In this document: positions 24,218 through 59,949 of the stretch, piece by piece
How positions within the stretch are numbered: position 1 is the first letter of the stretch
Layout of the letters: each line of letters starts with the position of its first letter
DNA from: an uncultured Candidatus Saccharibacteria bacterium
GTDB lineage: Bacteria; Patescibacteriota; Minisyncoccia; Phycocordibacterales; UBA9973
Direction: 5' to 3'
Assembly (NCBI GenBank): GCA_964474435.1
Contig: CAYYSI010000002.1
Coordinates: 92,260-156,259, forward strand
DNA: 64,000 nucleotides
Translations under genes and position numbers: made by a program
Notes under the pieces: model-generated
The model's input: the letters and a program-made list of their open reading frames with translations, nothing else
Databases searched by the model: none
What the model was told of the DNA's origin: nothing

Positions 24218-25162
24218 CTACCACAAATTGAGTCGAAGTGAGCGTTCAAGTGTACGCAATCCGATCGCAGTATTGTTTGGAGTGAGGAAGCTACCACTTG
24301 CATTTGGTCCATCGATACCAATGAAGCCATCATACGGGTTGCCGCCACCGATCGCGGCACAGACTGGGTTGAGGTAGCTACACGCACCGTTGTTTGCGAC
24401 GACTCCCCCGATAAATCCTTGAGCATCTTGGGCAAGGACGTGCCAAAACGGTGTTGGGACGCGAAGTTTGTATTGAGAGTTGGCTGGGATCTGAGCAGTG
24501 CGAGCAACACATCGGTTATACAGACCCGTAATAGTGTCTACTTTTGCCTTGAAGTTGTCGTGGTTGCCTGTTTCTGTGGCAACATCGGCATCAGTGCGGA
24601 GTGTCTGGGATAGTGCATAAAATCTATTTTGGAGTGCTTGGAGCTGAATAAGCTGCTCTGGTGTGAATTCGATATTGAGATCTGCACTGCTGCACTCGGG
24701 CCCTGCGACTGTAGGAGGTACTGATGCGGGGGTTTGGGTTGTAGGGTCAACGGTCGTTGTGGATCCTGGCGCCGTTGTCTCTCCTGGGACACCAGATCCA
24801 GGTGTGCTTCCTGATGATGAGCCATTGGTTCCCGTACCAGAAGTTCCTGTGCCAGAACCTGTGGATGTCGTTGGGGTATAGGCACCACTGCTAAACTGCG
24901 CAACTTGGGTGCCGATTGTTGGGGTGACACTCGTGCCCGGTGTTGCAGAGCTGAGATTGTCATCCACAAAGACTGATGAGAGGCTGCCATCGTTTGGGGT
25001 GAGTCCGGTGCCAGTGTTTGTGTCTCCGCTCAAAAACTGTCTGAATGTTGGTTTTGCAGTACCATTTTTCTCTGCGGTGCGGCGTGAAAAGAGCCATGCT
25101 CCCCCGAGAATGATCGCGAGCACGATGAGAATGATGACAAGGATAGTGATGAATCGTTTCAT
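24218..25162 (-). CDS. N-terminally membrane-anchored protein with S/T/G-rich linker and globular C-terminal domain (VirB8-like candidate)
   Basis: TM anchor ILVIILIVLAIILGG, then a TGTGS-rich linker, then a roughly 170-aa domain. Confidence 0.4.
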   Translation of the reverse strand: MKRFITILVIILIVLAIILGGAWLFSRRTAEKNGTAKPTFRQFLSGDTNTGTGLTPNDGSLSSVFVDDNLSSATPGTSVTPTIGTQVAQFSSGAYTPTTSTGSGTGTSGTGTNGSSSGSTPGSGVPGETTAPGSTTTVDPTTQTPASVPPTVAGPECSSADLNIEFTPEQLIQLQALQNRFYALSQTLRTDADVATETGNHDNFKAKVDTITGLYNRCVARTAQIPANSQYKLRVPTPFWHVLAQDAQGFIGGVVANNGACSYLNPVCAAIGGGNPYDGFIGIDGPNASGSFLTPNNTAIGLRTLERSLRLNLW

Positions 25163-25170
25163 AATGAGTA

Positions 25171-27483
25171 TTATAGATGACTATAGAAATACACGCTCGA
25201 ATCCTCCGATGTTTTAATAAATGGATCCGGAGTTGCAGTGATGTCTTCGAGATGTGACAACCCTGCAGGGATAGGACCTATCTGGTATGCATTGTCGATA
25301 CATGAGAGCTTCACTGGAGTTCCAGCAGCTGCTTGTGCATCGATATAGTCTGCTTTTGCTCGCGCAACAATACGCTCTACTTCTTGGTCAATGGCTATGA
25401 GTTCGGTGAGCGCATCTTGTGTTGTCTGAATGTTGGTATTGTACTGTTCGTTGTATGCAGCGACACCTTGCGCATAGCCGACGAGGTTTCCTGTTTCTTT
25501 GATCGAGTCCTTGATGTCGCCAGTGATGAGTGCTGCATCAGCCGGAGAGGTCGCCGTTGCAAGGAAGGCATTAGTGATTGCTGTTTCGCTATAGAGATCG
25601 TTGTACTTTGATTTCAAAAGCGTCAAGATATCATTGAAATAATATCCCATGAAGTCTGAACCCGTGATGCCGTTGGTTGCATATCGTCGGTCACTGATTT
25701 TCTTGAGACCGAAGTCAACTTTGTCAAAGAGTGACCATCGCACGAGCGCGTATCCTGCAAGTTCTTCGAAGTCACTGGTGTCATTGCCACCGAGTGTTTG
25801 TCCTGGGTCGAGGATATGGTGAATGTAGTCGATCTGGCCATCAACGGTCTTGGTCACTGGCTGCAAACCTTCGAGGAATGTTTGGGTATTTTCATTGAGG
25901 TTATTGTTCCAGGTTGGATTTGGTCCAGGGATACAATAATCGAGCGCGCCGAGTCGAGGAACGAGCGACTTCATGACGTGCTGCGCATCTTGGCTACGAG
26001 TGAGGAAGTTCTTTTGAGTGAGGATCACTGCGCGAAGCTGTTGGGGGCGACTGATATCGAACTCCTGGTTAAATCCACCTGTTGTTGCGTCATATCCAAG
26101 CGGTGTCTGACAGGCAGTTGCGCTTGCAAGTGTCTGGCCATTGGTACCGAGGACGACATTGCTGCCGATCCCCCCGGGTACGGTCGATGCTGCTCTGCCG
26201 CGTCCTGAGCCAGTGATGCCGTCAGTGAGCAAACGATTCATGAGTTGATCAAAGAATGTACCGAGCACTTGGTTGATCTTGTTAGTATTTTCAAGTTGGC
26301 GCACTGTTGAGTTAGTGATACTTGAAACCTGAGCTGAAATAAGAGAGCCAGGAGTTACTGTTTCGTAGCGCAGACACTTTGGAGCTTTTGTTGGAGATGC
26401 TGCTTGAGTCCCTGTTTGGTATCCACCTGTATATGCAGCACACTGTGCTTGATTTGTTGCAGCACCTCCAACGCTGGTGCAGCATGATGCGTAGTTAGTG
26501 GAAATGATCACACTGCAAGATCCTCCTGCAGTTGGGACGCCGTATGTTGTCGATGCTGTAGCTGTTGAAGTAACAGCTGTCTCGTACTCAGCACATTTTT
26601 TCATACTCAAGAATCCCCCGCCTTGCTGAAGTTCATCTTTTACATTTTGTTGTGCAGTGTCGATGATGCTATTGAGTTCGTCTGTTGCATTAAAATATGC
26701 GCCCACAGGATTGTTTTGAGGATTGAGGAATGCATTCCAGCCACCTTTGGTGAAGTCGCTTTGGAAGTCTTGGTATGCTTTGCCTTCAGGTGTATTCATC
26801 GCCTTGTTGAGGAGGCCATCAGAGTATCCGGTTGCCTGCTGTTTGAGTACAGATTTGAGAGCATTGCCAAATATTGGATTACTATTGCCGACATAGGTAT
26901 TGAGATAGCTATCAAGTTTTTCATTTTTAATAGTCTTGAGGTATGAGTCAATATTGCGTACATAAAAGGGGTTGCCACCAAATCCAGTCTTGACCCAGTT
27001 GAGTGTTTTGTCCGAGAGCTTGGAAAGAGCGGTCTTGGCAACGGCATCTGCTGCACCATTGAGACACTGTTCACGTTTTGTTGTTTTTTCAAGCTCTGCC
27101 TGAGATTTCTCCGTTGCGGTCTGTGTAGGCTTGTCCCCCGTTGGCACTGTTTGTGAGGTATTGGTGTTGCTACTCGTACTAGTTTTCTTATTAGTACTGC
27201 TAAAAAGACTCTTTGCCGCATCTGAAATAGCACCGCCGACATTGAGACAGCTCGCAAGAGCACCTCCGATACCGTTGAATGTGATACCACTATATGTATT
27301 ACCACTAAGACCAGAGCCTGTACCTGGAGTGAAGTTGCTTCCACCGATAGATGCAGCACTTGCACAGTTACAGATGTTGCCGCCTGGTGCGACCGATCCA
27401 TCTGAACACAGCGGATCAGCGTGCGCAACCATTGGAGTTGCCAACAGTGCGAGAAGTATGAAACTAAAGAAGGCAGTGCGCAT
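25171..27483 (-). CDS. large secreted Cys-containing hypothetical protein
   Basis: Signal peptide ending VAHA; 770 aa with no recognisable catalytic motif. Confidence 0.45.
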   Translation of the reverse strand: MRTAFFSFILLALLATPMVAHADPLCSDGSVAPGGNICNCASAASIGGSNFTPGTGSGLSGNTYSGITFNGIGGALASCLNVGGAISDAAKSLFSSTNKKTSTSSNTNTSQTVPTGDKPTQTATEKSQAELEKTTKREQCLNGAADAVAKTALSKLSDKTLNWVKTGFGGNPFYVRNIDSYLKTIKNEKLDSYLNTYVGNSNPIFGNALKSVLKQQATGYSDGLLNKAMNTPEGKAYQDFQSDFTKGGWNAFLNPQNNPVGAYFNATDELNSIIDTAQQNVKDELQQGGGFLSMKKCAEYETAVTSTATASTTYGVPTAGGSCSVIISTNYASCCTSVGGAATNQAQCAAYTGGYQTGTQAASPTKAPKCLRYETVTPGSLISAQVSSITNSTVRQLENTNKINQVLGTFFDQLMNRLLTDGITGSGRGRAASTVPGGIGSNVVLGTNGQTLASATACQTPLGYDATTGGFNQEFDISRPQQLRAVILTQKNFLTRSQDAQHVMKSLVPRLGALDYCIPGPNPTWNNNLNENTQTFLEGLQPVTKTVDGQIDYIHHILDPGQTLGGNDTSDFEELAGYALVRWSLFDKVDFGLKKISDRRYATNGITGSDFMGYYFNDILTLLKSKYNDLYSETAITNAFLATATSPADAALITGDIKDSIKETGNLVGYAQGVAAYNEQYNTNIQTTQDALTELIAIDQEVERIVARAKADYIDAQAAAGTPVKLSCIDNAYQIGPIPAGLSHLEDITATPDPFIKTSEDSSVYFYSHL

Positions 27484-27492
27484 GGTTGATGG

Positions 27493-28389
27493 CTATAGTA
27501 TACCGTATGTTGCCAAATAATTGTTCATGTTTACAAGCGACGTGTTGAGTTTGAGGCTATATTTCTTGTATACCGCAACTCCGACGAGGGCTGCAATACT
27601 GTTGTCATTGATTTCAGTCATATAGGTGAGCGATGTTGCGATCCCAGAGAAGCTGTTGACGATGCCAAGGTGGTCTTGGGCAAGTCCGACCGGGACTTTG
27701 ACTCTTGCGAGCTCTTTGGCAAGCTTTTGGTATGTGGTTGCGCTTGCTTTGAGTTGTGGCAGTCCGGTTTGGTCTTCGTTTTGGAGCGCGGTTGCGAGCA
27801 CTTCGATATCGGGGGTGTTTGCATCGTATTTACCAATAATATTGCGCATCGATGTGCGATAGCTGGTGAGGGTGGGGATACTGGTTTGCACGGTCTGGAT
27901 ATCTTTTAGAGTATACGTATTGCTGACCTGTTTGATATCGACTGATGCGGCAAGTTTTGCAGAGATGGCCTGGAGTGTCTGGTCGTCGACTTCGTCAGAT
28001 TGGCCAAGGGCCGCCGTGAGTGTAAAGAGCTCCCGTGCGAGACGGTCGGTGTCGTCTGTTGGTTCAGTGCTCATGCTGTCAGTGATGCCGAGCGCTTTCT
28101 TTTTTGCAGCTATGATTTCTGCATTTGAGGTGCCGTTAGTATAGAGCACAGTCGGATCCAGTCCCCAGAGCTTTTCTTCCCAGTCAGGAATCTTGTTGCC
28201 ATTAGAGTCTTTGCCCACAATGTCCCCCACTGTTTCAGACACAACGACTGCAGACTTTTCTCGTTTAAAGACAAGTCGCTGAAACCATGCCGTTTGTACG
28301 ATGAGCACAACTGCAACAATGCCGATCGCGATTGCGCCACGCTTGATGAACTGCTTACTGGGACGGGAAGATTGTTGTGATAGCTCCAT
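27493..28389 (-). CDS. membrane-anchored hypothetical protein
   Basis: Single N-terminal TM (AIAIGIVAVVLIVQTAWF); 298 aa. Confidence 0.45.
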   Translation of the reverse strand: MELSQQSSRPSKQFIKRGAIAIGIVAVVLIVQTAWFQRLVFKREKSAVVVSETVGDIVGKDSNGNKIPDWEEKLWGLDPTVLYTNGTSNAEIIAAKKKALGITDSMSTEPTDDTDRLARELFTLTAALGQSDEVDDQTLQAISAKLAASVDIKQVSNTYTLKDIQTVQTSIPTLTSYRTSMRNIIGKYDANTPDIEVLATALQNEDQTGLPQLKASATTYQKLAKELARVKVPVGLAQDHLGIVNSFSGIATSLTYMTEINDNSIAALVGVAVYKKYSLKLNTSLVNMNNYLATYGIL

Positions 28390-46785: not shown

Positions 46786-46802
46786 AGGGATATTCTATAT
46801 AG

Positions 46803-46874
46803 TGCACCCATCAGGACTCGAACCTGAAACGACGCTTCCGAAGAGCGCTGTGATATCCATTTCACCATGGGTGC
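46803..46874 (-). tRNA. tRNA-Arg (anticodon TCG)
   Basis: Manual fold: acceptor GCACCCA/TGGGTGC, anticodon stem GCGCT/AGCGT with loop CTTCGGA, T-arm CAGG-TTCGAGT-CCTG. Confidence 0.7.
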
Positions 46875-46940
46875 GTATTGCAACTATAGCATTATTAAGG
46901 TTTTTTGCAATTGTAAACCAATGTAGTAGTATATAATACG

Positions 46941-47591
46941 ATGAGAAAGGACAAAGATTTTATATTCACATTGCGCAAAGGAGGGGACTCATATAGGCAA
47001 ATCCAGGCAAAAACAGGGGTTTCACGTGCAACACTTACTAAGTGGTTTGGCAATACTGAGTGGTCAAAGGAGCTAAAAGTGGTCCATACTGACATTGAAA
47101 CCAGAAGCTCAAAGGAGCGAATGATCCGCCTCAATATGGTACGAAAGTTAAAGCTACAGTATGCATACGCACTTATTGAGTCTGAAGCTGTAAAGGAATA
47201 CGAGCTTTACAAGAAAGAACCGCTTTTTTGGGCAGGACTTATGCTCTATGCAGGCGAAGGGGAGAAGACCTCAAAAGGCTTGATTCGTATAAGCAGCAGT
47301 GAGACCTATATCCATAGGATCTTTGGGGATTTTGCCCAAAAGTACCTAGCAGTAGGGGAGAAATCATTGAAATATGGTCTCTTGGTGCACGAAGGGCAGG
47401 ATGAAGGTGTCTGTAAGAGTAAATGGGCACAAGAGCTCTCTCTAGATGATGGTGACTTCTATAAAACCCAGACCCTAAGGGGGCGAGAAACCAGATTGCA
47501 ATATGGTGTCTGTATGAGTATAATCTCGAATACTGGTCTGAAGAGAAAGGTACTAAAGTGGCTTTCTTTGGCACAGAATGAGAAATTTTGA
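46941..47591 (+). CDS. hypothetical protein with N-terminal HTH
   Basis: N-terminal resolvase-type HTH (DSYRQIQAKTGVSRATLTKW) and a weak LAGLIDADG-like segment (WAGLMLYAGEGEK); lies between two tRNA genes. Confidence 0.4.
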   Translation: MRKDKDFIFTLRKGGDSYRQIQAKTGVSRATLTKWFGNTEWSKELKVVHTDIETRSSKERMIRLNMVRKLKLQYAYALIESEAVKEYELYKKEPLFWAGLMLYAGEGEKTSKGLIRISSSETYIHRIFGDFAQKYLAVGEKSLKYGLLVHEGQDEGVCKSKWAQELSLDDGDFYKTQTLRGRETRLQYGVCMSIISNTGLKRKVLKWLSLAQNEKF

Positions 47592-47594
47592 TAT

Positions 47595-47665
47595 GCGGTC
47601 ATAGTTTAGTGGTAGAACGACTCGTTGCCAACGAGTAGGTTGGGTTTCGATTACCCATGATCGCA
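47595..47665 (+). tRNA. tRNA-Gly (anticodon GCC)
   Basis: Manual fold: acceptor GCGGTCA/TGATCGC, D-arm AGTTTAGTGGTAGAACG, anticodon loop TTGCCAA, T-arm GGTTTCGATTACC. Confidence 0.75.
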
Positions 47666-47840
47666 CAGAGTATATAAAGAACAAAAAGACCTTATTATGT
47701 AGGGTCTTTTTGTTTGTGTTGATATGTCTCATAGACAAAACCTGTCGAATATGGGGACAAAACCTTTAATAATCAACGAAACTGTGGATAACTAGGTGTA
47801 TATGTGGGATAACGGACGACTTTTACGCTACACTGTCCCT

Positions 47841-48203
47841 ATGATTCGTGTCTTTACGTCCAAAACCCAGGAATTGGGAGAAAAAGGGGAGCATGAGGCG
47901 GTCGTATACCTAGAAAATGACGGATTTACAGTTATTGAGCGAAATGCGAACGGCAAATACGGCGAAATCGATATTGTGGCCAAAAAGCAGGGGATTGTGC
48001 ACTTCTTTGAGGTAAAGGCAGGGTATGCAGGAGGGTGGATCAATCCGGCAGAAAACCTCACTCAGGCAAAACTTCGGAAATTCCTCATTTCTGCAGAACA
48101 CTATGCGCTGACCCATGGGATCAAAGACTATCGAGTCGAGGGGATCGTCGTGCTCTTTGACCGAAATGGGGGAGTAGGGGTCGAAAGGATAGGACTTTTT
48201 TAA
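47841..48203 (+). CDS. yraN: YraN/UPF0102-family endonuclease
   Basis: Conserved GEIDIVA...FFEVK motif; ATG at 47841 chosen (the track start is GTG at 47796). Confidence 0.65.
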   Translation: MIRVFTSKTQELGEKGEHEAVVYLENDGFTVIERNANGKYGEIDIVAKKQGIVHFFEVKAGYAGGWINPAENLTQAKLRKFLISAEHYALTHGIKDYRVEGIVVLFDRNGGVGVERIGLF

Positions 48204-48221
48204 GGTCTTTTTTGTGCGGGA

Positions 48222-48292
48222 TAGGGGAATCGGACTCCTGCTCTCAGTTTGGAAAACTGATGTTCTACCATTAAACTAATCCCGCAATATTT
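48222..48292 (-). tRNA. tRNA-Gly (anticodon TCC)
   Basis: Manual fold: acceptor GCGGGAT/ATCCCGC, anticodon stem TCAGT/ACTGA with loop TTTCCAA. Confidence 0.7.
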
Positions 48293-48340
48293 CTATTTTA
48301 TATTCTTTGGTCTCCTTCGCCAAGGCTTCGGCGACCGTTG

Positions 48341-48411
48341 TCGGGGTGCAGGGAATCGAACCCTGCCCTCTTGTTCCCAAAACAAGTATACTACCGATAT
48401 ACTACACCCCG
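48341..48411 (-). tRNA. tRNA-Pro (anticodon TGG)
   Basis: Manual fold: acceptor CGGGGTG/CACCCCG, anticodon stem CTTGT/ACAAG with loop TTTGGGA, T-arm CAGGG-TTCGATT-CCCTG. Confidence 0.65.
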
Positions 48412-48535: not shown

Positions 48536-50809
48536 ATGACGCACTCACGCGGTCACCTTTTTAGTACTCATAGACGCACACTCGCTGCGCTCTTGTTCGG
48601 CCTCTCGTTTTCGATCATTGTTGCGTACGCAACACCGCCGGGTAGTGCATATACGCCAGGTGAGACGCTTGACCCAACATGTGCACCAGGAGATACATTT
48701 TGTACCGTTGCGATTGCGGGAGGGTTAACATTTTCTACTGGACTTACCAATACGGCAAATACGATTACGAACAATCTCTCGACTGGTGTATCTGGGGGGC
48801 AGAGTGTCGTGGGCGGTACGGCCGCATCAAACAACCTCACGCTTTCATCAACGACTAATGCAACCAAAGGGAAAATTATTTTTGGGACAAGTGTGTATGA
48901 TGAGGCAAACAATAGGCTTGGTATAGGGACAACATCACCCGATCAGCGATTTGTTGTGCAAGGACAGACAGTGGGAGGAACACCAACATATCTCAGATTT
49001 GATTCAGGTATTCTTTCATTGGAAGGAGATTTGTCGGCACAAAATGGGGTACCACTGATCGATTTCAAAGATACTGCAACCAATCAAGTCTTTTCACGTG
49101 TGGGATATATTCTCAATACTGGTATTTCGATTAGTAACTCATGGATTGGTTTAAATAAATCAGCGGTCTTTATTGAACATACCGCTGATGAAAATTCATT
49201 TGTGATTTCCAGAGGGACGGCGGCATATGGAGTACCAACCCGTATTGGTATCGGTACGGCCACACCCTCAAGTAGGTTTGATGTGACAACGGATGCTTTG
49301 AGTGAAACACAAACTGCAGTCTCCGGTATTGCACTCGTAAACCACTCTCCGGCAGTAAATGGAGTACAACAGATTTCGCCCGCAATCCGATGGTCAGGTC
49401 ATGGATGGAAAACAGCTAGTACTGCGGCAAGTCAGGCCGTTGATTTCAGAGCGTATGTTACTCCTGTGCAAGGAACGACAAATCCTACGGGGTATCTCGG
49501 GTTTGGATCATCGATCAACGGGGGAGCGTACACCGATAATCAGCTTGTATTAACGAGTCAGGGATACGTAGGAATTGGGACGACGACACCGTCTAATGTG
49601 CTCGAAGTAACCGGAGGAGCGAGTATATTTAATGGAGACATCCGTATACGATCAGGTAATACCTTTGTTGTATTAAATGCAGATAATTCTCTCAATGGTT
49701 CGATGTCGCTCATACATGAACCAAATAATCCTGCTATATCTATAGTCGCATCGCAGTATAATGGCAGTACTATACAGGGATATAACGGAGAAGGTTCATA
49801 CTATTATGCGACTGTTTCGGGCAATCGTATTGTTTCCATAGATAGGAATGTACTGTCGGGCGGAACGACGGGTGGAAACGGATTTACTATCGGGGACTAT
49901 GCTGAGTATGCACCAACGACAGGGACCAATACGTACAACACAATAAACCTCAATCCTATTATTAACGCTACAGGTGGCACGAACACTGTTCGGGGGATCT
50001 ACTATAATCCAAATCTTACAGCAGTGGTCGGCACAACCAATATTGCCTTTGAAAATACAACAGGAAACGTGCTGTTGGGTACGACGAGTGGGCGAGTGGG
50101 TATCGCAAATACGAATCCGGGATATTTGCTCCATGTTGGTTCGTCCGCGGTCACGACCGGTACAACAGTTGCACGTTTTGAAAATCAGGGCGGTACGTGT
50201 GATGTTGTTCCGTCAACTATCGGAGGTATAACCTGTACATCCGATGAGCGGCTCAAGAAAAATATCACGACACTTGATGATTCTATATTGGACAAAATAC
50301 TTTCGCTTCGATTGGTAACATACAACCTGAGAGCCGAAGAAAATACTGATCCTTTGCATACAGGTGTCATTGCGCAAGAACTCGTGAACGTGTTTCCTGA
50401 GCTTGTTGCCACTGATAGCTCCGGCTGGGAGTCAGTCTCGTATACTGGACTGATCCCGTACACGATCAAGGCAATTCAAGAAATGAATCTGCGTGTTACC
50501 GAGCTCAATGACATGCAAAAAGCAAATCCACTCCGCGACAACCTCACTGCATGGTTTGCAAATGCTGCAAACCATATCACGCGCATCTTTACGGGTGAAA
50601 TCTGCCTTACGGATACTGACGGCACATCGGAATGTCTAAACAAAGCAGAGCTCGGACAATTGAAACAACTCCTCAATACACAGACACGCACACCTGATCC
50701 TGTTGTACCATCAACCCCTGATCCACTACCATCGCAAGATCCGAGTATTCCTGAATTAGTGCCAGAGAGTACACCCGCTGAGATTCCCACAGATACGTCA
50801 CAATCATAA
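48536..50809 (+). CDS. secreted tail-fibre-like protein with C-terminal Peptidase_S74 intramolecular chaperone (autoproteolytic) domain
   Basis: Signal peptide/TM LAALLFGLSFSIIVAYA. The C-terminus CTSDERLKKNITTLDD...GVIAQEL...P matches the S74 IMC consensus S-D-x-R-x-K-x-N-I, followed by a coiled-coil tail. The central region is Gly/Thr/Asn-rich and beta-helix-like. Confidence 0.65.
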   Translation: MTHSRGHLFSTHRRTLAALLFGLSFSIIVAYATPPGSAYTPGETLDPTCAPGDTFCTVAIAGGLTFSTGLTNTANTITNNLSTGVSGGQSVVGGTAASNNLTLSSTTNATKGKIIFGTSVYDEANNRLGIGTTSPDQRFVVQGQTVGGTPTYLRFDSGILSLEGDLSAQNGVPLIDFKDTATNQVFSRVGYILNTGISISNSWIGLNKSAVFIEHTADENSFVISRGTAAYGVPTRIGIGTATPSSRFDVTTDALSETQTAVSGIALVNHSPAVNGVQQISPAIRWSGHGWKTASTAASQAVDFRAYVTPVQGTTNPTGYLGFGSSINGGAYTDNQLVLTSQGYVGIGTTTPSNVLEVTGGASIFNGDIRIRSGNTFVVLNADNSLNGSMSLIHEPNNPAISIVASQYNGSTIQGYNGEGSYYYATVSGNRIVSIDRNVLSGGTTGGNGFTIGDYAEYAPTTGTNTYNTINLNPIINATGGTNTVRGIYYNPNLTAVVGTTNIAFENTTGNVLLGTTSGRVGIANTNPGYLLHVGSSAVTTGTTVARFENQGGTCDVVPSTIGGITCTSDERLKKNITTLDDSILDKILSLRLVTYNLRAEENTDPLHTGVIAQELVNVFPELVATDSSGWESVSYTGLIPYTIKAIQEMNLRVTELNDMQKANPLRDNLTAWFANAANHITRIFTGEICLTDTDGTSECLNKAELGQLKQLLNTQTRTPDPVVPSTPDPLPSQDPSIPELVPESTPAEIPTDTSQS

Positions 50810-50833
50810 TTTCTTGCTATACTTACTACTGTA

Positions 50834-52474
50834 ATGACGCATTCACGCGCTCAACTTTTCAGTACTCATAGACGCACACTTGCTGCACTCATGTTTGGGC
50901 TCGCATTTTCTGCGGTTGTTGCGTACGCGACACCACCAGGGAGTGCATATACGCCCGCCGAAACACTCGATCCCATCTGTGTCCCAGGAAGTGCATTTTG
51001 TACAGTAGATATTAGTGCGGGGTCTCTCATTGGTTCAACATCTACTAATGGTACAGAGACGTGGCTTGGGACGAGTGTGGCTGGGCTTGGGGCGGCATCA
51101 ACTGATCACACTGTTTTTATTGGGATTGATGCAGGGATAAGTGCAAATGATAGTGAGTATTCTAATTTCATGGGATATCAGGCAGGCGCAGGGTCGACAA
51201 CGACACACTCGTCCACATTTATTGGTACAAATGCTGGATACCAAGTGAGTAATGCTTCAAATGCGGTATTTATCGGTTCCGAAAGTGGATCAACGGTGAC
51301 AAATGCAGGGGGTTCAAACTTCATCGGCTATCAGGCGGGCCTCAATGCAATAAATGCTACCACATCCAACCTCATCGGCTATCAGGCAGGACTGAATAGT
51401 TTTTCAGTGGCTGTTGCCAACGTCATCGGTAATGGTGCGGGGTCTGGTGCTACTGCTGCACCCTTCGTTAATTTCATTGGAAACAATGCAGGGTTTAATT
51501 CGTCGGATACGAGTAGTTCAACCTTTATAGGGTATAACACAGGTGGAAACGCAACCCATGCACAGCACTCAGTCTTTATTGGAACACAGACAGGAGCTAA
51601 TTCTACAGGAGCAACGAATGGAATATTTCTAGGAAGAGAGGCTGGCCTAAATGATACCGTTGATAATACTACCGACCAAGATGACTACTCAATACTTATT
51701 GGTCTTCGTGCAGGAACAGGAGGATTTGAAAACAGTATTGCAATCGGCGCATACGCAACAAACACTGCGCTAAACCAATTTATGATTGGTTCTGCAACGC
51801 GTCCGATAAATGAAATGGTCATCACCGGAACTGGGGGGCAGTCATGTACGATTCGCCCGGATACTGCAGGTATCAACTGTTCATCTGATCAAACACTCAA
51901 AACAAATATTACTGATTTAGAAAATGTACTCGACACACTCAGTGATGTGCGCACGGTCATGTACAATTGGAAAAATACTCCAAACACCAATGCGCAAATC
52001 GGATTTCTTGCACAAGATCTCAAGGAGTATTTCCCAACACTTGTGTCTCGTGCATCAAATGGGTATCTCCAGGTCAACTATGCAGGCATGACACCGATCC
52101 TCACAAAGGCGATCCAAGAACTCAATCTAAAAGTAGAAGGTGCGTTTGATATTCAGAAAAACAATACCTTTGCCGGAAATATGCGTGCATGGTTTGCAAA
52201 CACTTCAAATGGCATCGCAAAGATGTTTGCGGGTGAAGTAGAGACAAAGAACTTGTGTGTCTCTGACGATACAGGCGAGCGAACATGTATTACGAAGTCA
52301 GACCTCGACGCACTTCTTGAAAATGCACACCTCACTCCATCGTCTCCAGAACCAGTACCGACACCTGAAATACCTGTAGTCCAAGATGAGCCGGTTGACC
52401 CAGTACCAACTGAGGATGCGACTGAACCTATGGTTGATAGTACAATTGATACACCACCAACACACAATGAATAA
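50834..52474 (+). CDS. secreted tail-fibre-like paralogue with Hep_Hag-like FIGYQAG repeats and C-terminal Peptidase_S74 IMC domain
   Basis: The first ~60 aa and the 5' region are near-identical to the upstream paralogue. There are about 10 degenerate 14-16-aa repeats (NFIGYQAGLN...). The C-terminus reads CSSDQTLKTNITDLEN...GFLAQDL. Confidence 0.65.
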   Translation: MTHSRAQLFSTHRRTLAALMFGLAFSAVVAYATPPGSAYTPAETLDPICVPGSAFCTVDISAGSLIGSTSTNGTETWLGTSVAGLGAASTDHTVFIGIDAGISANDSEYSNFMGYQAGAGSTTTHSSTFIGTNAGYQVSNASNAVFIGSESGSTVTNAGGSNFIGYQAGLNAINATTSNLIGYQAGLNSFSVAVANVIGNGAGSGATAAPFVNFIGNNAGFNSSDTSSSTFIGYNTGGNATHAQHSVFIGTQTGANSTGATNGIFLGREAGLNDTVDNTTDQDDYSILIGLRAGTGGFENSIAIGAYATNTALNQFMIGSATRPINEMVITGTGGQSCTIRPDTAGINCSSDQTLKTNITDLENVLDTLSDVRTVMYNWKNTPNTNAQIGFLAQDLKEYFPTLVSRASNGYLQVNYAGMTPILTKAIQELNLKVEGAFDIQKNNTFAGNMRAWFANTSNGIAKMFAGEVETKNLCVSDDTGERTCITKSDLDALLENAHLTPSSPEPVPTPEIPVVQDEPVDPVPTEDATEPMVDSTIDTPPTHNE

Positions 52475-54608
52475 ACTATTTAGAAACATACTAGTACTCG
52501 CACTGTGCACGATAGGATTCGTGAGTGTTGCACACGCGGCAATGGGGACGATCGACCCAGGCAATGATGGCTCATACAAGGCGCTTATACAAAATACTGA
52601 CCTGGGGGCCGCAACCGCAATTAACTTTGGGAAGTTCACGACACAGTCTGCAAAAAATATCACCGTCTCTGACACAGAGCTGCGTGGGTTTGCTTGGGGC
52701 GAAGGGGTAGGGTGGATCGTCACCAACTGTGCTGATACGACGAGTGGCTGCAGTGTCACCAACAGCAATTTCAAAATCGCCAATGATGGCAGTGGCAACC
52801 TCTCGGGCTACGCCTGGGGTGAAAACACGGGCTGGATCAATTTTGGGCCATTTACCAACCCTCTGATTTCAACAGTCAAAATTTCTGGAGGACAATTTGG
52901 AGGTACTCTTGGAAGCGCGGGCTACGCATGGTCACAAAACTTTGGCTTCATCAAGTTTGATTGCAGTAGTCCTACAAGCTGTGTAAAAACTGACTGGGCA
53001 CCAGGTGGAGCATTTCAGTGTAACGATACAGTAGATAATGATGGAGATGGATTGATCGACTATCCTGCTGATCCTGGATGTAGTAATGCGACAGATAATG
53101 ATGAATCAAATGGTGGAACAACTGGGGGACCGGGAACTCCCGCATGTCGGGACGGGCGTGATAACGACGGCGACAACCTTGTCGACTATCCATCTGACCC
53201 AGGCTGCGATAACGCAGACGATACAAATGAATTTAATGCGCCGATAGATTTCTGTACCGCAAATCCATCTGATCCGTCGTGTTCATTTTGTGCATTGAAC
53301 CCAACCAACCCAGCTTGTCAGCAACCACCATTCTGTACGACGAACCCGGGTGATCCATCATGTTCATTCTGTAATCAAAATCCAGGAGATCCGTCATGTC
53401 AGATACCATTCTGTACAACCAATCCAACAGCGCCAATATGTCAGCAGCCATTCTGCACTCTGTATCCGAATGATCCATCATGCCAAGCACAACCATTTTG
53501 TACAACAAACCCAAATGATCCTTCGTGTGCATTTTGTGTTCTGAATCCTACTGATCCATCCTGCAAGACAACACCATCATATTGTCAGGTACACCCCGAA
53601 GAATGTTACCCTCCAAAAATACCAACAAAAATCGAAGGTGCAACCAAATCTTTTGTTACTGGCACAATCGGCAAAATACTCAAACTCACAGGGCTTGTTG
53701 CAGTCGGCGTTGGTGCACTCGCACTTTCATTCGTCGGAACACAGTTCTCACTCTACAGCCTTCTCCTTCTCTTGATGCGACTCTGGTCACTCTTGCTCAT
53801 CGCCCTCGGTATCAAGAAAAAGAGTAATCCATGGGGGACTGTGTATGACTCTGTCACCAAACAGCCAATCGATCCGGCGTACGTCGTGCTCATGGATATG
53901 CAGGGCAATGAAGTTGCAACCTCGATCACTGACATCGAAGGACGATACGGATTTGCAGTACCTCCTGGCACCTATACGATCATAGCGAACAAGACTAACT
54001 ACGAATTCCCATCCAAGAAACTTGCAGGCAAGACATCTGATGAACTCTACGATGACCTCTACTTTGGTGGACCAATCGTGATCACAGAACAAGATGGTCT
54101 GATCACAAAAAATATCCCACTCGATCAGCAGAACTTTGACTGGAACGAATATGCAAAAAATGAACAGCATCGACTCCGTCACTACAAGCGTCAAGATCTC
54201 TTTATTGCACGCCTTTCAAATATATTCTTCATTCTCGGCTTCATCGTCACCGCGATCTCGGTCCTCGTCGTTGCGTCCCTCTTTAATATCGTGCTCATGG
54301 GACTCTATATTGTCACTGCACTTGGGCGACTCTTTAAGGTTCGCATTCAACCAAAGGGAAGTGTCGCAGACACTGCAACTGATATGCCATTGCCGTTTAG
54401 TGTGGTGCGCGTGGTCTCGACTGCAACTAACAAAGAGATCATGCACAAGGTCGCAGGACCCACCGGCAAGTACTACGCGCTCGTAGCAAATGGTGACTAT
54501 CGCGTCGTCGTCGATCGCAAGAACGCCGATCAAAGCTATACGCCGGTCTCTATCCCAGATCCTGTCGCAGTGAAAAAAGGTTATATGAAAAAAGACTTCA
54601 AAGTATAA
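52467..54608 (+). CDS. multi-pass membrane protein with thrombospondin-type-3-like Ca-binding repeats, about ten CxxNPxDPSC cysteine repeats and CarboxypepD_reg-like domains
   Basis: ATG at 52467 overlaps the upstream stop (ATGAATAA). Signal peptide; DNDGDGLIDYPADPGC repeated twice; the repeat array FCTTNPGDPSCSFC...; a TM bundle; the motif GTVYDSVTKQPIDPAYVVLMD...GRYGF..PPGTYTI. Confidence 0.55.
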   Translation: MNKLFRNILVLALCTIGFVSVAHAAMGTIDPGNDGSYKALIQNTDLGAATAINFGKFTTQSAKNITVSDTELRGFAWGEGVGWIVTNCADTTSGCSVTNSNFKIANDGSGNLSGYAWGENTGWINFGPFTNPLISTVKISGGQFGGTLGSAGYAWSQNFGFIKFDCSSPTSCVKTDWAPGGAFQCNDTVDNDGDGLIDYPADPGCSNATDNDESNGGTTGGPGTPACRDGRDNDGDNLVDYPSDPGCDNADDTNEFNAPIDFCTANPSDPSCSFCALNPTNPACQQPPFCTTNPGDPSCSFCNQNPGDPSCQIPFCTTNPTAPICQQPFCTLYPNDPSCQAQPFCTTNPNDPSCAFCVLNPTDPSCKTTPSYCQVHPEECYPPKIPTKIEGATKSFVTGTIGKILKLTGLVAVGVGALALSFVGTQFSLYSLLLLLMRLWSLLLIALGIKKKSNPWGTVYDSVTKQPIDPAYVVLMDMQGNEVATSITDIEGRYGFAVPPGTYTIIANKTNYEFPSKKLAGKTSDELYDDLYFGGPIVITEQDGLITKNIPLDQQNFDWNEYAKNEQHRLRHYKRQDLFIARLSNIFFILGFIVTAISVLVVASLFNIVLMGLYIVTALGRLFKVRIQPKGSVADTATDMPLPFSVVRVVSTATNKEIMHKVAGPTGKYYALVANGDYRVVVDRKNADQSYTPVSIPDPVAVKKGYMKKDFKV
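53230..53580 (+). repeat. in-frame tandem coding repeats (~33-36 nt units) encoding the CxxNPxDPSC array
   Basis: Repeated ...tgtac(a/g)acaaacccaaatgatcc(a/t)tc(a/g)tg... units visible at the nucleotide level. Confidence 0.6.
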
Positions 54609-54610
54609 AA

Positions 54611-54645
54611 GAAAAAATCTCCATCAATTGATGGAGATTTTTTCT
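54611..54645. terminator. bidirectional rho-independent terminator
   Basis: aaaaa-ATCTCCATC-aatt-GATGGAGAT-tttttc. Confidence 0.7.
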
Positions 54646-54653
54646 TTAAGTAC

Positions 54654-55019
54654 TTATTTGGTGATAGTTTGGATCTTTTCGATGACGTCGCTGAGTGTGA
54701 AGTTTGATTTCACCATGTATTCTGCGGCACCTGCATCGAGGACGCGCTTCATTTCGAGATCGTCAGAAAGGTTTGAAAAGACAATAACAGGGACTGCTTT
54801 TATTTTCTCATCAGCCTTGAATTTCTGAAGGAGTTCGTAGCCGTTGATGTCTGGGAGCATGAGGTCAAGGAGTATGACGTCAGGAGTGCCGAGCGCGAGT
54901 GCGTTGTCGACTTCGGCTTGTGTGGTTGCAGCAATCACCGCAAAGCCTTCGTGGGTGAACTTTGAACTCTCGAGGTTCTTTAAAAATGAGTCGTCTTCGA
55001 TAATCAGGATTTTTTTCAT
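54654..55019 (-). CDS. stand-alone response regulator receiver domain (CheY-like)
   Basis: Acidic pocket DD...D (ILLDLMLPD) and the conserved K; 121 aa with no output domain. Confidence 0.8.
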   Translation of the reverse strand: MKKILIIEDDSFLKNLESSKFTHEGFAVIAATTQAEVDNALALGTPDVILLDLMLPDINGYELLQKFKADEKIKAVPVIVFSNLSDDLEMKRVLDAGAAEYMVKSNFTLSDVIEKIQTITK

Positions 55020-55065
55020 ATACAGAGAGTATACCCCAGATTGGAAAATCCGCTATTCTGCTCAA

Positions 55066-55764
55066 TTATCCCAAAGGCAGCGCGAGAGTGAATATGGTGC
55101 CTTCGAGTGGGGTACTGGTAAACGTGAGCGTGCCACCCTGGCGCTCGACGATATGTTTGGTTGCATAGAGGCCGAGTCCGACGCCGACGTATTTTTCTCG
55201 GGTATTGGATGCCCGGAAAAACTTCTCAAAGATCCGTGCATGTTCCTCGTGCGGGATAACGACACCTTTGTCTCCCACAGTGAGCACGGCCTTGCCGCCC
55301 ATGCCAGCGAGTGTCAGCGTGATGTCTGTATTTGCAGCGCCATATTTGATCGCATTTTCCAGCAGGTTGTGGATCGCAATACGCAGCTTTTCTTTGTCAC
55401 CAATGACGACGATGGGGCTTGGGGGTGCGGTATAGCGTATGTGCATGCCTTTTGCAGCAGCTTCACTCGTGAAATCTTTGATAGAGACATCGATGAGTGT
55501 ATTGAGCGGGATCGGATCTGTCGCATAAGGGACACTGCCGCCTTGGGTACGGATGATCGTCATCGTGTCATTGATGAGTGTGATCATGCGCTCGTTGGAG
55601 TCGGTGGCCTGAGCGAGCATTGCCACTTGGGTTTTGTTCAGTGAGCCAAAGTCGCCATCAATGAGCATCTTGAACAGCCACTTCATCGCAGTGAGAGATG
55701 TGCGCAGCTCGTGTGCAGATACGAGGAAGAAATCAATCTTTTCTTGAGAGTCATTTTTTTCCAT
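55066..55764 (-). CDS. soluble sensor histidine kinase (HisKA + HATPase_c, no TM or sensor domain)
   Basis: H-box SAHELRTSLTAM, an N-box LLENAIKY, and G-boxes GVGLGL. Confidence 0.8.
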   Translation of the reverse strand: MEKNDSQEKIDFFLVSAHELRTSLTAMKWLFKMLIDGDFGSLNKTQVAMLAQATDSNERMITLINDTMTIIRTQGGSVPYATDPIPLNTLIDVSIKDFTSEAAAKGMHIRYTAPPSPIVVIGDKEKLRIAIHNLLENAIKYGAANTDITLTLAGMGGKAVLTVGDKGVVIPHEEHARIFEKFFRASNTREKYVGVGLGLYATKHIVERQGGTLTFTSTPLEGTIFTLALPLG

Positions 55765-55794
55765 TACAACGATTGTACCATTTATGGAGTATGA

Positions 55795-55825
55795 AAATAA
55801 AAAACCCTTCCGGAATGGAAGGGTT
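55795..55825 (-). terminator. rho-independent terminator (minus strand)
   Basis: On the minus strand: CCCTTCC-attcc-GGAAGGG-ttttttatttt. Confidence 0.55.
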
Positions 55826-55851
55826 ATGTTTAGGTGTTTTTTGTAAGAATG

Positions 55852-56151
55852 TTAGGCAGCTAATGTTGCTAACACTTTGTCGTGTCCCGGTATTGCTTCT
55901 ACACCCACCAATATTTCTTTGGTATGGATGTGAATGAATTTCGGGGAGTTGCCGTTCATTTTTCTTTTAACCGCAGTTATGATAGCGATAATGTCAGATG
56001 CTGCCACGTTTTCTTCAAAAATGATTGCAGCATGTTTTTTCTTTTTAGCGGCTTCAGCAATCTCAAAAGGTTTGGCTCCTTTGTGAGAAAAAGAAAGTGC
56101 CGGCTTCGGATCATTTTTAAGATAAATTTCCTTTAAAGAATTTTCAGTCAT
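55852..56151 (-). CDS. small hypothetical protein
   Basis: ATG at 56151 (MTENSLKEIY); 99 aa; no confident family assignment. Confidence 0.3.
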   Translation of the reverse strand: MTENSLKEIYLKNDPKPALSFSHKGAKPFEIAEAAKKKKHAAIIFEENVAASDIIAIITAVKRKMNGNSPKFIHIHTKEILVGVEAIPGHDKVLATLAA

Positions 56152-57243: not shown

Positions 57244-59949
57244 CTACTGATACCTCGCCATGATTTCAGCTTCCACTTCCTCTCTCGGGCGGCCGTATTT
57301 GAGGTAGGAGAGCTCCTTGAGTTTCTCGGCAACAACAGGGTTACCCTTGGGTGGGAATGGGGTCTTGGAGTTAAATGGCTTGGCAGGGACGCCGTTTACG
57401 AGCATTTTGATATAGCAGTTGAGGTTTTCTTGTTTGATGATGTCGGCCGGAGTGAATGTTGGGGCAAGTTGTTGTTCAAAGATATTGGCATTTTCAGGAG
57501 AGACACGGTGGACGACCATGGTACCGACGTTTCCAAATATCGCATTCTTGATGCCTTCCTCAAGCTGCTCGATGTACTGGTGCGCAACCGTAAGCGAGAG
57601 GCGATATTTGCGGGCCTCGGAAAGGATCGTCGAGATCGAGTCAGTCGTGACGTTTTGGAACTCGTCGATGTAGAGATAGAAGTCGTTCACTGGACCCTTG
57701 CCGATGATGTCGACACGAGAGAGTGCTGCCATGGTGATCTTGCCGACCAAAAGGAGACCGATGAGGTTGGAGTTGATGTCACCGAGACGGCCTTTGGAAA
57801 GGTTCACAAGCAAGATCTTTTTGTTATCCATGATGTCGCGGAAGTTGAGCACGGATTCTTGTTGAGCGACGACGGGGCGCATGATGTCGTTAGAAATAAA
57901 CACGTCAAATTTGTTGGTGATATAGGGGACGAAGTTCGCAAGTGCACTCTCACCAGTTGTCTTTTCAGCATTTTGCCAAAAGGCTTTGATGATCGGATTT
58001 TTGCAGCGGGCGAGTTTCATGTCGCGGAACGTCTTGTCGGTGAGGACACGACCGATTTCGAGAAGTGTAGAACCAGATGCTGGGTCCTCCATCACAAGGC
58101 CTGCAGAGTTGCGGAAGTATTGTTCAAACATTGGGCCACCCGCAGTCTTCATATCAAAGAGTTTGTTGAAAATAGAGAGGAGCTCGTTGATGACAAATAT
58201 TTTTTGTTCAGGGAAGTTTGCATCGTACTCAAGCATGTTGAGACCCATCGGACGCGCCGTGTGAGCCGGATCAAAATAGATGACGTCGTCGATGCGCTCT
58301 GGGGGGATGTTGGCAAGGATGTCCTCGATGTCGTTGCCGTGCGGATCGATGAAGCACACTCCGTCGCCGTTTTTGATATCCTGAATGATCATGTTTTTCA
58401 AAAACACGGTTTTACCAGTACCAGTCTGTCCGATCACATAGCAGTGGCGCACGCGATCTTCTTTTGCAAAATGAATCTCAGTCGTCTGTCCGCGATACGT
58501 GTTGGTACCGATCGTGATGCCGTTCGTGTTTGGCATTGTCGGTGCAGGCGCAGATGCAGCACTACTTTCCTTGAGCTCGGGCGCAGCCGTAAATCCAACA
58601 GGGAAGTGAAAGAGTGTTGCGAGCTCGTCGATGTTGAGCGGTATTTGTTCGCTCTGATTGCGTGTACGGAATGTAAAGTCGTGCACAAATGCAGGGATTG
58701 CAGATGCACGCGTGTCATACCAAATGAGTGAGTTTGAGTTGGGCAATGTGAACTGCGCAAACGATGCTTTGATCGTATTGAGAATACTTGTTGCGCGTTC
58801 GACCGTGGTACCTGTTGCGATAATGCGAATACCTGCAGTCATGGTCTGACTTTTTGCCTTTGCGGTTGCAAACTCGATGCCGCGCGTGTCGACTGGTTTT
58901 GGTTTGTCGTCCTCTGGTTTGTCTTTTTCAAAAAAGGCCATGAGTCCTTTGCCGAGCTCGCGACCGATAGAGGCCGTTGCATCTTTGTACAAGTCTTTGA
59001 CCGTTGTGCCACCCTTTTGTGCAGAGTCGATGATCGATGTGTAGAGCGTGTTGGTGTTCGTCGTGTCATTTGAAATGATGAGCTGGATTGCAGCGCCTTC
59101 ACCATTTGCTTCAAGTTGTGAGAGTGACCCGATCAAAGCTGAGAGAGGATCGTGCTCAAATGCGCTGTCAGTGTTCAATGGAAAAATTGCAGGCTCTTTG
59201 AGCGATGCAACACTTGCGGCAATACCAGAGCCTTGAGCCGTGAATATGTTGTAGTCATCGACGACTTCATCAATGATGGCGGTGGGGTAGTATGCGTGCA
59301 CGAGCTTTTCAAATGTAGATTCGTTGACACTTGGGATCGATGCATAGAGTCCAATGTCGCGACCGTTGTTTTGCACGGCGAGTTCGAGGACATAATAGTC
59401 GACACCGTTGCTGATGGTTGACCACATGCCCATGTAGAACTGCTTCATCGCCTGAATGAAATTTTTGAAATCACTGCCTTCAGTATTTGCAGCTGCAGGA
59501 AGGGTCACCGCAAAGAGGGTGTGGCGAAGTTCTTGTTGGAGGGCACTTCGTTCTTTGAGTCCCGGGATTGCGCCGATCGTATGGAGGTACTGCACGAGGA
59601 ATCGGTGGAAGTCGTCCTCGAGGTGTGCGTCGTGCATGCCCGCAACGATGTCGAGCGCATTTTTGATACCCTTGGAGAGCATGATCGCAAAGAGCTCCTC
59701 TATCTTTTGGTCATGGGTTTCAGGTTTGAGACGCAGCACGATACGTTCTGTTTCGTGTGTCGGCAGCATGCTTGATTCATGAAGGAACTCTTGAGCTTCA
59801 GTTTGCGCATACTGCTCGATCGTGTGCTTTGCGGCAGCTTCGAGATTTGCATGTGGCTTACTCTGCAGCAGATATTCTTTTTGCGCTTCAGTACCAAGCC
59901 ATGCGATTTCTTGGGCAGGTGTTGTCAGCGTTTCTTTGGGAGCGAACAT
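57244..59949 (-). CDS. VirD4/TraG-family type IV coupling-protein-like ATPase with ~480-aa N-terminal extension and no TM anchor
   Basis: Walker A VIGQTGTGKTVFL, a D-rich Walker B region YLYIDEFQN, and a TraG-D_C-like signature KYRLSLTVAHQYIEQL. Confidence 0.55.
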   Translation of the reverse strand: MFAPKETLTTPAQEIAWLGTEAQKEYLLQSKPHANLEAAAKHTIEQYAQTEAQEFLHESSMLPTHETERIVLRLKPETHDQKIEELFAIMLSKGIKNALDIVAGMHDAHLEDDFHRFLVQYLHTIGAIPGLKERSALQQELRHTLFAVTLPAAANTEGSDFKNFIQAMKQFYMGMWSTISNGVDYYVLELAVQNNGRDIGLYASIPSVNESTFEKLVHAYYPTAIIDEVVDDYNIFTAQGSGIAASVASLKEPAIFPLNTDSAFEHDPLSALIGSLSQLEANGEGAAIQLIISNDTTNTNTLYTSIIDSAQKGGTTVKDLYKDATASIGRELGKGLMAFFEKDKPEDDKPKPVDTRGIEFATAKAKSQTMTAGIRIIATGTTVERATSILNTIKASFAQFTLPNSNSLIWYDTRASAIPAFVHDFTFRTRNQSEQIPLNIDELATLFHFPVGFTAAPELKESSAASAPAPTMPNTNGITIGTNTYRGQTTEIHFAKEDRVRHCYVIGQTGTGKTVFLKNMIIQDIKNGDGVCFIDPHGNDIEDILANIPPERIDDVIYFDPAHTARPMGLNMLEYDANFPEQKIFVINELLSIFNKLFDMKTAGGPMFEQYFRNSAGLVMEDPASGSTLLEIGRVLTDKTFRDMKLARCKNPIIKAFWQNAEKTTGESALANFVPYITNKFDVFISNDIMRPVVAQQESVLNFRDIMDNKKILLVNLSKGRLGDINSNLIGLLLVGKITMAALSRVDIIGKGPVNDFYLYIDEFQNVTTDSISTILSEARKYRLSLTVAHQYIEQLEEGIKNAIFGNVGTMVVHRVSPENANIFEQQLAPTFTPADIIKQENLNCYIKMLVNGVPAKPFNSKTPFPPKGNPVVAEKLKELSYLKYGRPREEVEAEIMARYQ

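Follow-up and report, generated by a model that had tools for sequence, protein, structure and literature searches.

A widespread membrane protein family of Paceibacteria is often encoded beside signal-peptide-bearing Peptidase_S74 fibres and may serve to dock them

We analysed a 64,000-nucleotide (nt) stretch of DNA from an uncultured Candidatus Saccharibacteria bacterium (contig CAYYSI010000002.1, positions 92,260 to 156,259 of the forward strand), hereafter the window, with attention to the gene at 52467-54608. Its 713-amino-acid (aa) product and the relatives of that product are called FAM. Judged by sequence, FAM belongs to a large, undescribed family of Paceibacteria-type Patescibacteria (Candidate Phyla Radiation, CPR) that is conserved at both ends and hypervariable in between. 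FAM genes frequently adjoin genes for fibres of phage type, and the N-terminal motif of those fibres diverges in step with one particular FAM domain, a beta-barrel. The interpretation that we favour, at a probability somewhat short of even, is that FAM is a membrane pedestal on which phage-derived, Sec-exported fibres dock in Paceibacteria. FAM and its parts are the following:

52467..54608, + strand: FAM, 713 aa; open reading frame (ORF) and start checked; more than 1,174 homologues.
52467..52538, + strand: predicted signal peptide, aa 1-24, cleavage AHA/A; hydropathy peak 2.23 at aa 8-26.
52539..53000, + strand: conserved N-terminal beta-barrel, aa 25-178, with three G[YF]AW....G[WF]I hairpins and two conserved Cys pairs.
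53019..53207, + strand: two acidic DxDxDG disulfide units, aa 185-205 and 227-247, located by regular expression; NF033662 E-value 6e-6, below cut-off.
53253..53606, + strand: eight C..[NY]P..P.C loops and one degenerate loop, aa 263-380, located by regular expression; AlphaFold2 (AF2) confidence (predicted local distance difference test, pLDDT) 36-72.
53664..53807, + strand: hydrophobic helices H1 and H2, aa 400-447, with a conserved N-P turn between them (hydropathy, AF2).
53829..54161, + strand: CarboxypepD_reg domain 1 (CPDreg1) with an insertion, aa 455-565 (Pfam); the most conserved part of the family.
54180..54335, + strand: basic juxtamembrane helix, H3 and H4, aa 572-623 (hydropathy, AF2).
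54354..54605, + strand: CarboxypepD_reg domain 2 (CPDreg2), aa 630-713, second Pfam stretch; AF2 beta-sandwich with pLDDT ~96.

According to the ORF list and the sequence, the open frame runs from 52386 to 54608, and the 713-aa product begins MNKLFRN. The start proposed in a preliminary description of this DNA, made from its letters alone, is the ATG at 52467 in ATGAATAA; as stated there, FAM overlaps the gene ahead of it, an S74 gene that ends with TAA 52472-52474. This start was favoured over the ATG at 52386 on the basis of homologue N-termini and of independent gene calls on two other assemblies. The same description had considered that the ORF might be split by a sequencing error; when this was checked, an identical, intact 713-aa FAM was found in a 246-kb NCBI contig and in two independent Sequence Read Archive (SRA) assemblies. 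Hence, the ORF is not an assembly artefact.

The signal peptide announced earlier is supported by eye and by hydropathy: an n-region and a 14-aa h-region precede the AHA/A site, and a hydrophobic leader of similar kind is present in the FAM homologues inspected. A lipoprotein signal was considered and rejected by eye, as Cys14 lies in the context LALC with no G, A or S at position -1 and is not kept in relatives. No LP.TG, NP.TG or LA.TG motif, the mark of a sortase anchor, occurs in FAM or in either fibre, and Pfam and NCBIfam searches detected neither HisKA/HATPase nor another known signalling domain in FAM.

A protein search in which 8,000 candidates were scored yielded 1,174 significant relatives, and a scan using one genome per species yielded at least 561. 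All the named relatives are Paceibacterota, Nomurabacteria or Patescibacteria group, so the domain combination that the preliminary description could not recognise is that of a large uncharacterised family rather than a unique one. In an alignment of 120 members, two parts are constant: an N-terminal region of ~155-195 aa including the signal peptide, found in most full-length members, and a C-terminal module of ~314 aa (C module), whose length is 289-368 aa in 120/120 listed members and 310-319 aa in most. Many of these 120 homologues align over 96-100% of the FAM query, and most of the 20 invariant columns fall in CPDreg1. Compared with the query, the N-terminal domain is on average 66% identical, CPDreg1 73%, CPDreg2 49%, and the helices and the alignable middle ~35%. 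Several genomes harbor two FAM paralogues on separate loci (L028/L058, L037/L041, L038/L081 and L032/L082).

The N-terminal domain, of ~155 aa, had been overlooked in the preliminary description. Its AF2 model, computed from the family alignment, has a pLDDT of ~95. No Pfam, NCBIfam or PHROG model covers this barrel, and no structural match was found among predicted viral structures (BFVD). An exhaustive profile-free search (E<=1e-3) gave 3,810 protein clusters that contain the barrel or its repeat, among them both short proteins of 240-450 aa and multi-repeat proteins of up to 3,269 aa. Among the proteins P0121-P0250 some carry 4-11 copies of the repeat, and TSP3_bac, PKD and Ig domains co-occur with it.

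The genes upstream of FAM encode two fibres:

48536..50809, + strand: fibre gene 1, 757 aa; signal peptide, N-terminal motif, shaft and Peptidase_S74 (PF13884, E-value 1.5e-17 at aa 569-624).
48632..48709, + strand: N-terminal motif of fibre 1, TPPGSAYTPGETLDPTCAPGDTFCTV, directly after the predicted cleavage site AYA/T.
50834..52474, + strand: fibre gene 2, 546 aa, a paralogue with a like N-terminus and S74 (PF13884, E-value 7.3e-15 at aa 351-404).

In both fibres a short signal peptide leads into TPPGSAYTPGETLDPxCxPGxxFCTV. The Ser-Lys dyad of S74 (S-x4-K) is intact in both (TSDERLK in fibre 1, SSDQTLK in fibre 2), and their matches to PHROG tail fibres fall mainly in the C-terminal third, that is, in S74 and the shaft ahead of it. 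The N-terminal motif recurs in fibres of many unrelated loci, with T, L, P, C, P, C and V invariant in 20 sequences; beyond the N-terminus the motif-bearing fibres vary, their lengths ranging from about 550 to 2,180 aa. In complete fibres the signal peptide is short and its terminal site is mostly of A-x-A type, the Ser-Lys dyad is intact and LPXTG is absent. As fibres of this kind have no anchor of their own, a holder would be needed.

Some loci depart from the standard arrangement. In L049:2378-9916 a 329-aa ORF with the fibre motif directly precedes a 2,178-aa S74 ORF without it, which may be a split gene or a two-part fibre. In L086:10730-14304 a 1,028-aa motif-bearing ORF lies downstream of FAM, with no S74 domain detected, and in L163:8964-14192 (also in L164 and L167) a 639-aa motif-bearing S74 fibre is found inside the str operon, between rpsL-rpsG and fusA, with no barrel gene adjoining.

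A prophage or phage-module reading of the locus was considered and rejected. FAM had no match in PHROGs, the barrel had none in BFVD, and two scans of 2.9 million IMG/VR contigs recovered relatives of neither FAM nor the fibre motif. No phage structural or replication genes surround the FAM/fibre loci, where the neighbours are tRNAs, the CCA enzyme, YraN, response regulator and histidine kinase genes, rpsL and M50; the fibres, moreover, carry signal peptides. Altogether, these observations indicate that the fibres are cellular rather than viral; from their leaders they are predicted to be exported.

The association between fibre genes and FAM was then examined in the genomes of other species (80 FAM genes at 79 loci), two genes being considered adjacent if they lay on the same strand with a gap of no more than 200 nt. 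A fibre gene directly adjoins FAM in 32/80 cases, 24 upstream and 9 downstream, and a fibre gene within 10 kb on either side is nearly always the immediate neighbour. One locus (L018:5638-14568) has a tandem FAM-fibre-FAM-fibre order. In close relatives the gene order is CCA enzyme, YraN, zero to two fibres, FAM, a convergent regulator, kinase, two unknown genes, a VirD4-like ATPase and HU. The flanks of FAM are different in distant relatives, where a Peptidase_M50 gene precedes it (29 loci) and rpsL follows it (34 loci). Either context has fibre genes inserted immediately before or after FAM, and the linkage thus survives a change of genomic surroundings. The M50 gene (site-2 protease family, ~210 aa, e.g., L018:5081-5695, in L017-L087) is on the same strand immediately upstream of FAM in those 29 loci, which could reflect either synteny or intramembrane proteolysis. 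No M50 gene was found among the ORFs of the 64-kb window, and Peptidase_M50 was set aside as a functional partner and left as unexplained synteny.

The reverse test started from metagenome loci seeded with the fibre motif GETLDPxCxP alone (70 unique loci). A gene with a FAM-type N-terminal domain was found within 1 kb in 21 of the 27 decidable loci, the remainder of the 70 being too short. Of these 21 partners, 11 differ from FAM in architecture: they have a signal peptide, the same barrel, a linker, a single C-terminal transmembrane segment and a basic tail. Several of them carry a CarboxypepD_reg-like domain before the transmembrane segment (Pfam scan on L113 only), and the shortest has 260 aa. 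Since these partners keep the barrel and a membrane tether, a membrane-tethered barrel is what the fibre genes travel with.

When we compared divergence in 34 adjacent pairs, the fibre motif was found to vary with the FAM barrel (Mantel r 0.29, p 0.0002), while none of CPDreg1, CPDreg2 and the C module as a whole correlated with the motif (p 0.18-0.58). Controlling for the C module in a partial Mantel test left the relationship in place (r 0.29, p 0.0004). In the 27 pairs with an S74 match, the motif-barrel correlation was higher (r 0.42, p 0.0002) than those of S74 with the barrel (r 0.18) or of the motif with the C module (r 0.16). Taken over the 34 and the 27 pairs, p for the motif against CPDreg1, CPDreg2 and the C module ran from 0.07 to 0.58. 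In 15 of the 34 pairs the fibre is downstream of FAM and its 5' end abuts the coding end of the C module; hence, physical contiguity alone does not explain the motif-barrel correlation. The co-variation is suggestive of a fit between the two parts. Together with the two adjacency counts, it supports the linkage to fibre genes that had been proposed from this single locus.

In the window, the spacing is 24 nt between the two fibre genes and an 8-nt overlap between fibre 2 and FAM. The block is bounded by two elements:

48214..48411, - strand: tRNA-Gly(tcc) and tRNA-Pro(tgg), upstream boundary of the fibre-fibre-FAM block (ARAGORN).
54608..54647, no strand assigned: hairpin with an 18-bp stem and T-runs on both strands, a predicted bidirectional terminator closing the operon.

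The upstream tRNAs, the 24-nt and -8-nt spacings and the single strong terminator are consistent with an operon of three genes. Translational coupling by overlap, as claimed in the preliminary description, is peculiar to this genome. In other genomes the two genes overlap or lie up to a few tens of nt apart, usually 2-30 nt, and many relatives have no fibre gene beside FAM. Four tRNA genes (Arg-tcg, Gly-gcc, Gly-tcc and Pro-tgg, window 46802-48411) flank the YraN gene, two of them directly upstream of fibre 1. In a fibre-less relative (L006) only ~400 nt separate the YraN gene from FAM. As relatives without fibres also lack this insertion, the fibre genes may have entered beside tRNA genes. 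At 46941-47591 (+ strand) the window encodes a 216-aa protein that matches HTH_23 weakly and is conserved, between YraN and the CCA-enzyme gene, in close relatives only.

The repeats that first drew attention to FAM turned out to be a non-conserved part of it. Two units of the pattern C.D..DNDGD.L.DYP.DPGC are present (aa 185-205 and 227-247), as had been reported, and each contains an acidic loop of the DxDxDG type (DNDGDGLID, aa 190-198; DNDGDNLVD, aa 232-240) for which calcium binding is predicted by motif only. Their likeness to thrombospondin type 3 repeats holds at the level of that motif but not at the level of profiles: neither TSP_3 nor TSP3_bac of Pfam-A matched FAM at E<=1, and membership was rejected. 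TSP3_bac does match other proteins of the analysis (P0079 and P0172). The NCBIfam model NF033662, an acidic double-disulfide repeat, matches both units with 25.9 bits against a cut-off of 41 (E 6e-6, only two copies).

The array of Cys repeats is real, with eight canonical loops (aa 263-366) and one degenerate loop (aa 373-380) instead of about ten, and the loop count is far above chance: even one C..[NY]P..P.C match appeared in only 9 of 20,000 shuffles of FAM. Other properties ascribed to the array did not hold. The units are spaced by 36-45 nt and not 33-36 nt; rather than being near-perfect, they share 50-80% of their nucleotides (mean 64%), and the same residue shares its codon in only 49% of cases. 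The strongest DNA periodicity is an 81-nt double unit with 60-73% identity. Tandem Repeats Finder detected no tandem repeat in 50000-56000, and the idea that the array is prone to expansion or contraction by slippage was dropped. The repeat number is the same in the NCBI contig and the two SRA assemblies. The array is old and diverged, and slippage is unlikely.

In the 120-member alignment the stalk region spans 94-665 aa. What it contains depends on the member: several kinds of Cys loop, Cys-free linkers rich in Pro, Thr, Gly and Ser, or VWA or DUF4114 inserts, with the copy number of the acidic units ranging from 0 to 6. The repeats taken as defining features in the preliminary description are therefore a hypervariable, non-conserved stalk, replaceable by Pro/Thr-rich linkers, VWA or DUF4114, in a protein conserved at both ends.

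The interleaving of hydrophobic helices, described earlier as transmembrane, with two CarboxypepD_reg domains was borne out by Pfam, hydropathy and AF2. PF13620 matches FAM in two stretches with 53.6 bits (gathering cut-off 32.3), and hydrophobic helices lie at about aa 400-424, 429-446, 586-603 and 605-622. The AF2 model contains helix-turn-helix pairs (400-424/429-446 and 572-601/605-622), two transthyretin-like beta-sandwiches with a pLDDT of ~95 (aa 457-554 and 631-712) and a low-confidence stalk. When the full-length model was compared with the PDB using Foldseek, only transthyretin-like, CnaB, SdrD-B, pilin and NOMO domains were returned (5aq0_A with a target-normalised TM-score of 0.74), and the matches of the CPDreg domains are all extracytoplasmic domains. 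At the domain level FAM can thus be classified as a CarboxypepD_reg member, and its sequence does not mark it as a TSP3 protein, a sortase substrate or a phage protein.

Which side of the membrane the CPDreg domains face depends on the helices. If all four span the membrane, both domains are outside, which fits the fold precedent and the barrel-only architecture; if only one of H1 and H2 spans it, both are cytoplasmic and FAM becomes receptor-like. This matters in view of two genes that follow FAM in the window:

54654..55764, - strand: CheY-like single-domain regulator (121 aa) and sensorless histidine kinase without transmembrane segments (232 aa); Pfam; convergent with FAM.

The kinase consists of HisKA and HATPase only, with no transmembrane segment and no sensor domain. 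Orthologues of the pair are neighbours of FAM or fibre genes in at least four layouts: they can be convergent or divergent, can follow a fibre in the same direction, or can have the regulator placed between FAM and the fibre (L025, L092, L105, L111, L135, L147 and 20 clade-A loci). Such orthologues accompany either full FAM or fibres alone, and never the 11 barrel-only partners.

Under the docking hypothesis, the signal peptide would be removed and the C module, with its four helices and two transthyretin-like domains, would hold FAM in the membrane. A stalk of lineage-specific length and composition would project the barrel outward; in this genome it would comprise the two Ca-type acidic disulfide units and eight to nine disulfide loops, and might be stiffened by the loops and possibly by calcium. 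The barrel would act as a socket for the N-terminal plug of the fibre, PGETLDPxCxPGxxNCxV. The fibres, having no anchor of their own, would be exported, lose the signal peptide, trimerise and then shed the S74 chaperone. A possible extension is that FAM signals to the neighbouring sensorless kinase.

Several observations weigh against this hypothesis. About half of the FAM genes that could be judged (31 of 63, considering the flanks only; 17 of the 80 were undecidable) have no adjacent fibre, and six fully evaluable fibre loci have no adjacent barrel gene, adjacency alone being considered. The barrel or its repeat occurs in ~3,800 clusters of many architectures and need not be fibre-specific. 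Significance in a Mantel test is inflated when the sequences are related, and the same correlation could arise from exchange of gene cassettes. In addition, CPDreg1 and not the barrel is the most conserved part of FAM, which pure anchoring leaves unexplained, and the charge distribution and an unpaired Cys may place the CPDreg domains in the cytoplasm. The latter points agree better with a different explanation, rather unlikely in our estimation but the main rival: FAM would be a transmembrane receptor or transducer whose cytoplasmic CPDreg domains regulate the kinase and regulator when a ligand or a host is bound by the barrel, whether by itself or together with a fibre. Lysine and arginine average 3.7, 4.5 and 2.0 per sequence on the flanks facing the CPDreg domains, compared with 0.03 and 0.18 in the two helix-helix turns. 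CPDreg2 holds exactly one Cys in 66/120 members, while the Cys count of the ectodomain is even in 117/120, as expected of a disulfide-bonded surface part. H2, the least hydrophobic helix, has a conserved acidic/basic stripe and passes the 19-aa hydropathy threshold in 61% of members. The high conservation of CPDreg1 and the recurrence of the kinase and regulator beside full FAM or fibres point the same way. On the other hand, the structural matches of the CPDreg domains are extracytoplasmic, AF2 shows two helical hairpins, the four segments are hydrophobic in most members, and the CPDreg-like domain of the barrel-only architecture is clearly outside. The kinase and regulator are, moreover, missing within 10 kb on either side in about two thirds of the loci, and here they are convergent with FAM and not co-transcribed. 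Reception and fibre docking can be combined, and we retain the former either as a rival or as an extension. An elaborate combination, which we regard as distinctly unlikely, is a three-part organelle of Paceibacteria made of Sec-exported phage-derived fibres, a co-evolving plug-and-socket receptor, and cytoplasmic transthyretin-like domains that report engagement to the kinase and the CheY-like regulator.

The frequency of FAM without a neighbouring fibre might also mean that FAM is an independent surface adhesin or envelope protein, co-located and co-regulated with fibres but never in physical contact with them. FAM behaves as a core gene in the housekeeping synteny M50-FAM-rpsL, its barrel repeat recurs widely among other surface proteins that have PKD, TSP3 and Ig domains, and comparable small barrels of other bacteria are ligand binders. 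Yet adjacency is reciprocal and survives rearrangements, and co-variation is specific to the fibre motif and the barrel. A ligand-binding tip would be expected to vary, whereas the barrel is 66% conserved and it is the stalk that varies. We consider an adhesin of this sort quite improbable. Finally, phage fibres often require dedicated assembly factors encoded alongside, and the tight operonic linkage would suit a transient chaperone or export platform that is absent from the final structure. Such a role seems very improbable indeed: the fibres already hold an intramolecular S74 chaperone with its dyad intact, a hypervariable stalk of 94-665 aa is better suited to a spacer, and barrel-only partners of down to 260 aa leave scant room for catalysis or chaperoning.

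Comparison with known systems provides a frame for the docking hypothesis. Phage S74 tail fibres and tailspikes (K1F/endoNF endosialidase, T5 pb1) and their virion adaptors share with the present system the S74 Ser-Lys dyad, a conserved N-terminal attachment end with a variable distal part, and a conserved partner encoded alongside. They differ in that here the fibres have Sec-type signal peptides, the neighbours are housekeeping genes and the partner is a cell membrane protein. By analogy, FAM would functionally most resemble a phage fibre adaptor moved into the cell membrane. The fold of both CPDreg domains is that of CarboxypepD_reg/CnaB stalk domains (SdrD B repeats, pilins) and of NOMO of the endoplasmic reticulum BOS complex (5aq0, 10ps, 8bdw, 9c7u_B), and NOMO also combines such domains with a membrane anchor. 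FAM differs in having no LPXTG or sortase signal and in that its domains are interleaved with two helix pairs, an arrangement that none of the returned PDB matches shows. The acidic units contain a DxDxDG-type loop closed by a disulfide and in this recall NF033662 and thrombospondin type 3 loops; the NF033662 score is below cut-off, TSP_3 and TSP3_bac gave no match, and the units are optional (0-6 copies). Small soluble eight-stranded beta-barrels (hemophilin, HpuA, NHBA, TbpB/fHbp) are also among the systems closest to FAM. Exosporium fibres of the BclA type are trimeric, have a short conserved N-terminal targeting motif and are held by an anchor protein of the basal layer; the analogy with the FAM fibres would lie in the concept only, as proteins, fold, organism and envelope are unrelated.

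A literature search found no description of the FAM family, of the barrel domain or of cellular S74 fibres in Patescibacteria, and, in the library searched, no report pairing Peptidase_S74 with the Candidate Phyla Radiation; the articles listed there on Patescibacteria with 'tail fiber' or 'carboxypeptidase regulatory' did not concern a FAM-like protein. One article mentions other adhesion domains only, and neither the FAM family nor S74 fibres (PMC10936435).

The window also contains genes related to secretion. A 901-aa VirD4/TraG-like coupling ATPase (T4SS-DNA_transf, TrwB_AAD_bind and TraG-D_C) is encoded at 57244-59949 (- strand), separated from the kinase by two unannotated genes (138 and 344 aa); in close relatives it is syntenic with HU downstream of the kinase. 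Further away, a type IV secretion-like cluster of Gram-positive type (13271-28389, - strand) includes a TraG P-loop/VirB4-like ATPase (17261-19069), a PrgI-family protein (19728-20135) and a protein with a YkuD L,D-transpeptidase domain (14551-16338), together with large secreted proteins of 1,164 and 770 aa that have no Pfam match.

Paceibacteria are the largest CPR class, almost uncultured and abundant in groundwater and wastewater, and how they attach to and sense their hosts is largely unknown. The locus described here, with secreted phage-type fibres and a dedicated membrane partner, is a concrete and widely conserved candidate for host attachment in this class. Two implications extend beyond it: a beta-barrel or repeat domain found in thousands of clusters, and covered by no Pfam or NCBIfam model, has been defined, and the annotation of an S74 'tail fibre' in genomes of this kind need not signify a prophage. 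If the three-part organelle exists, it would represent a contact-sensing host-attachment apparatus of a previously undescribed kind.

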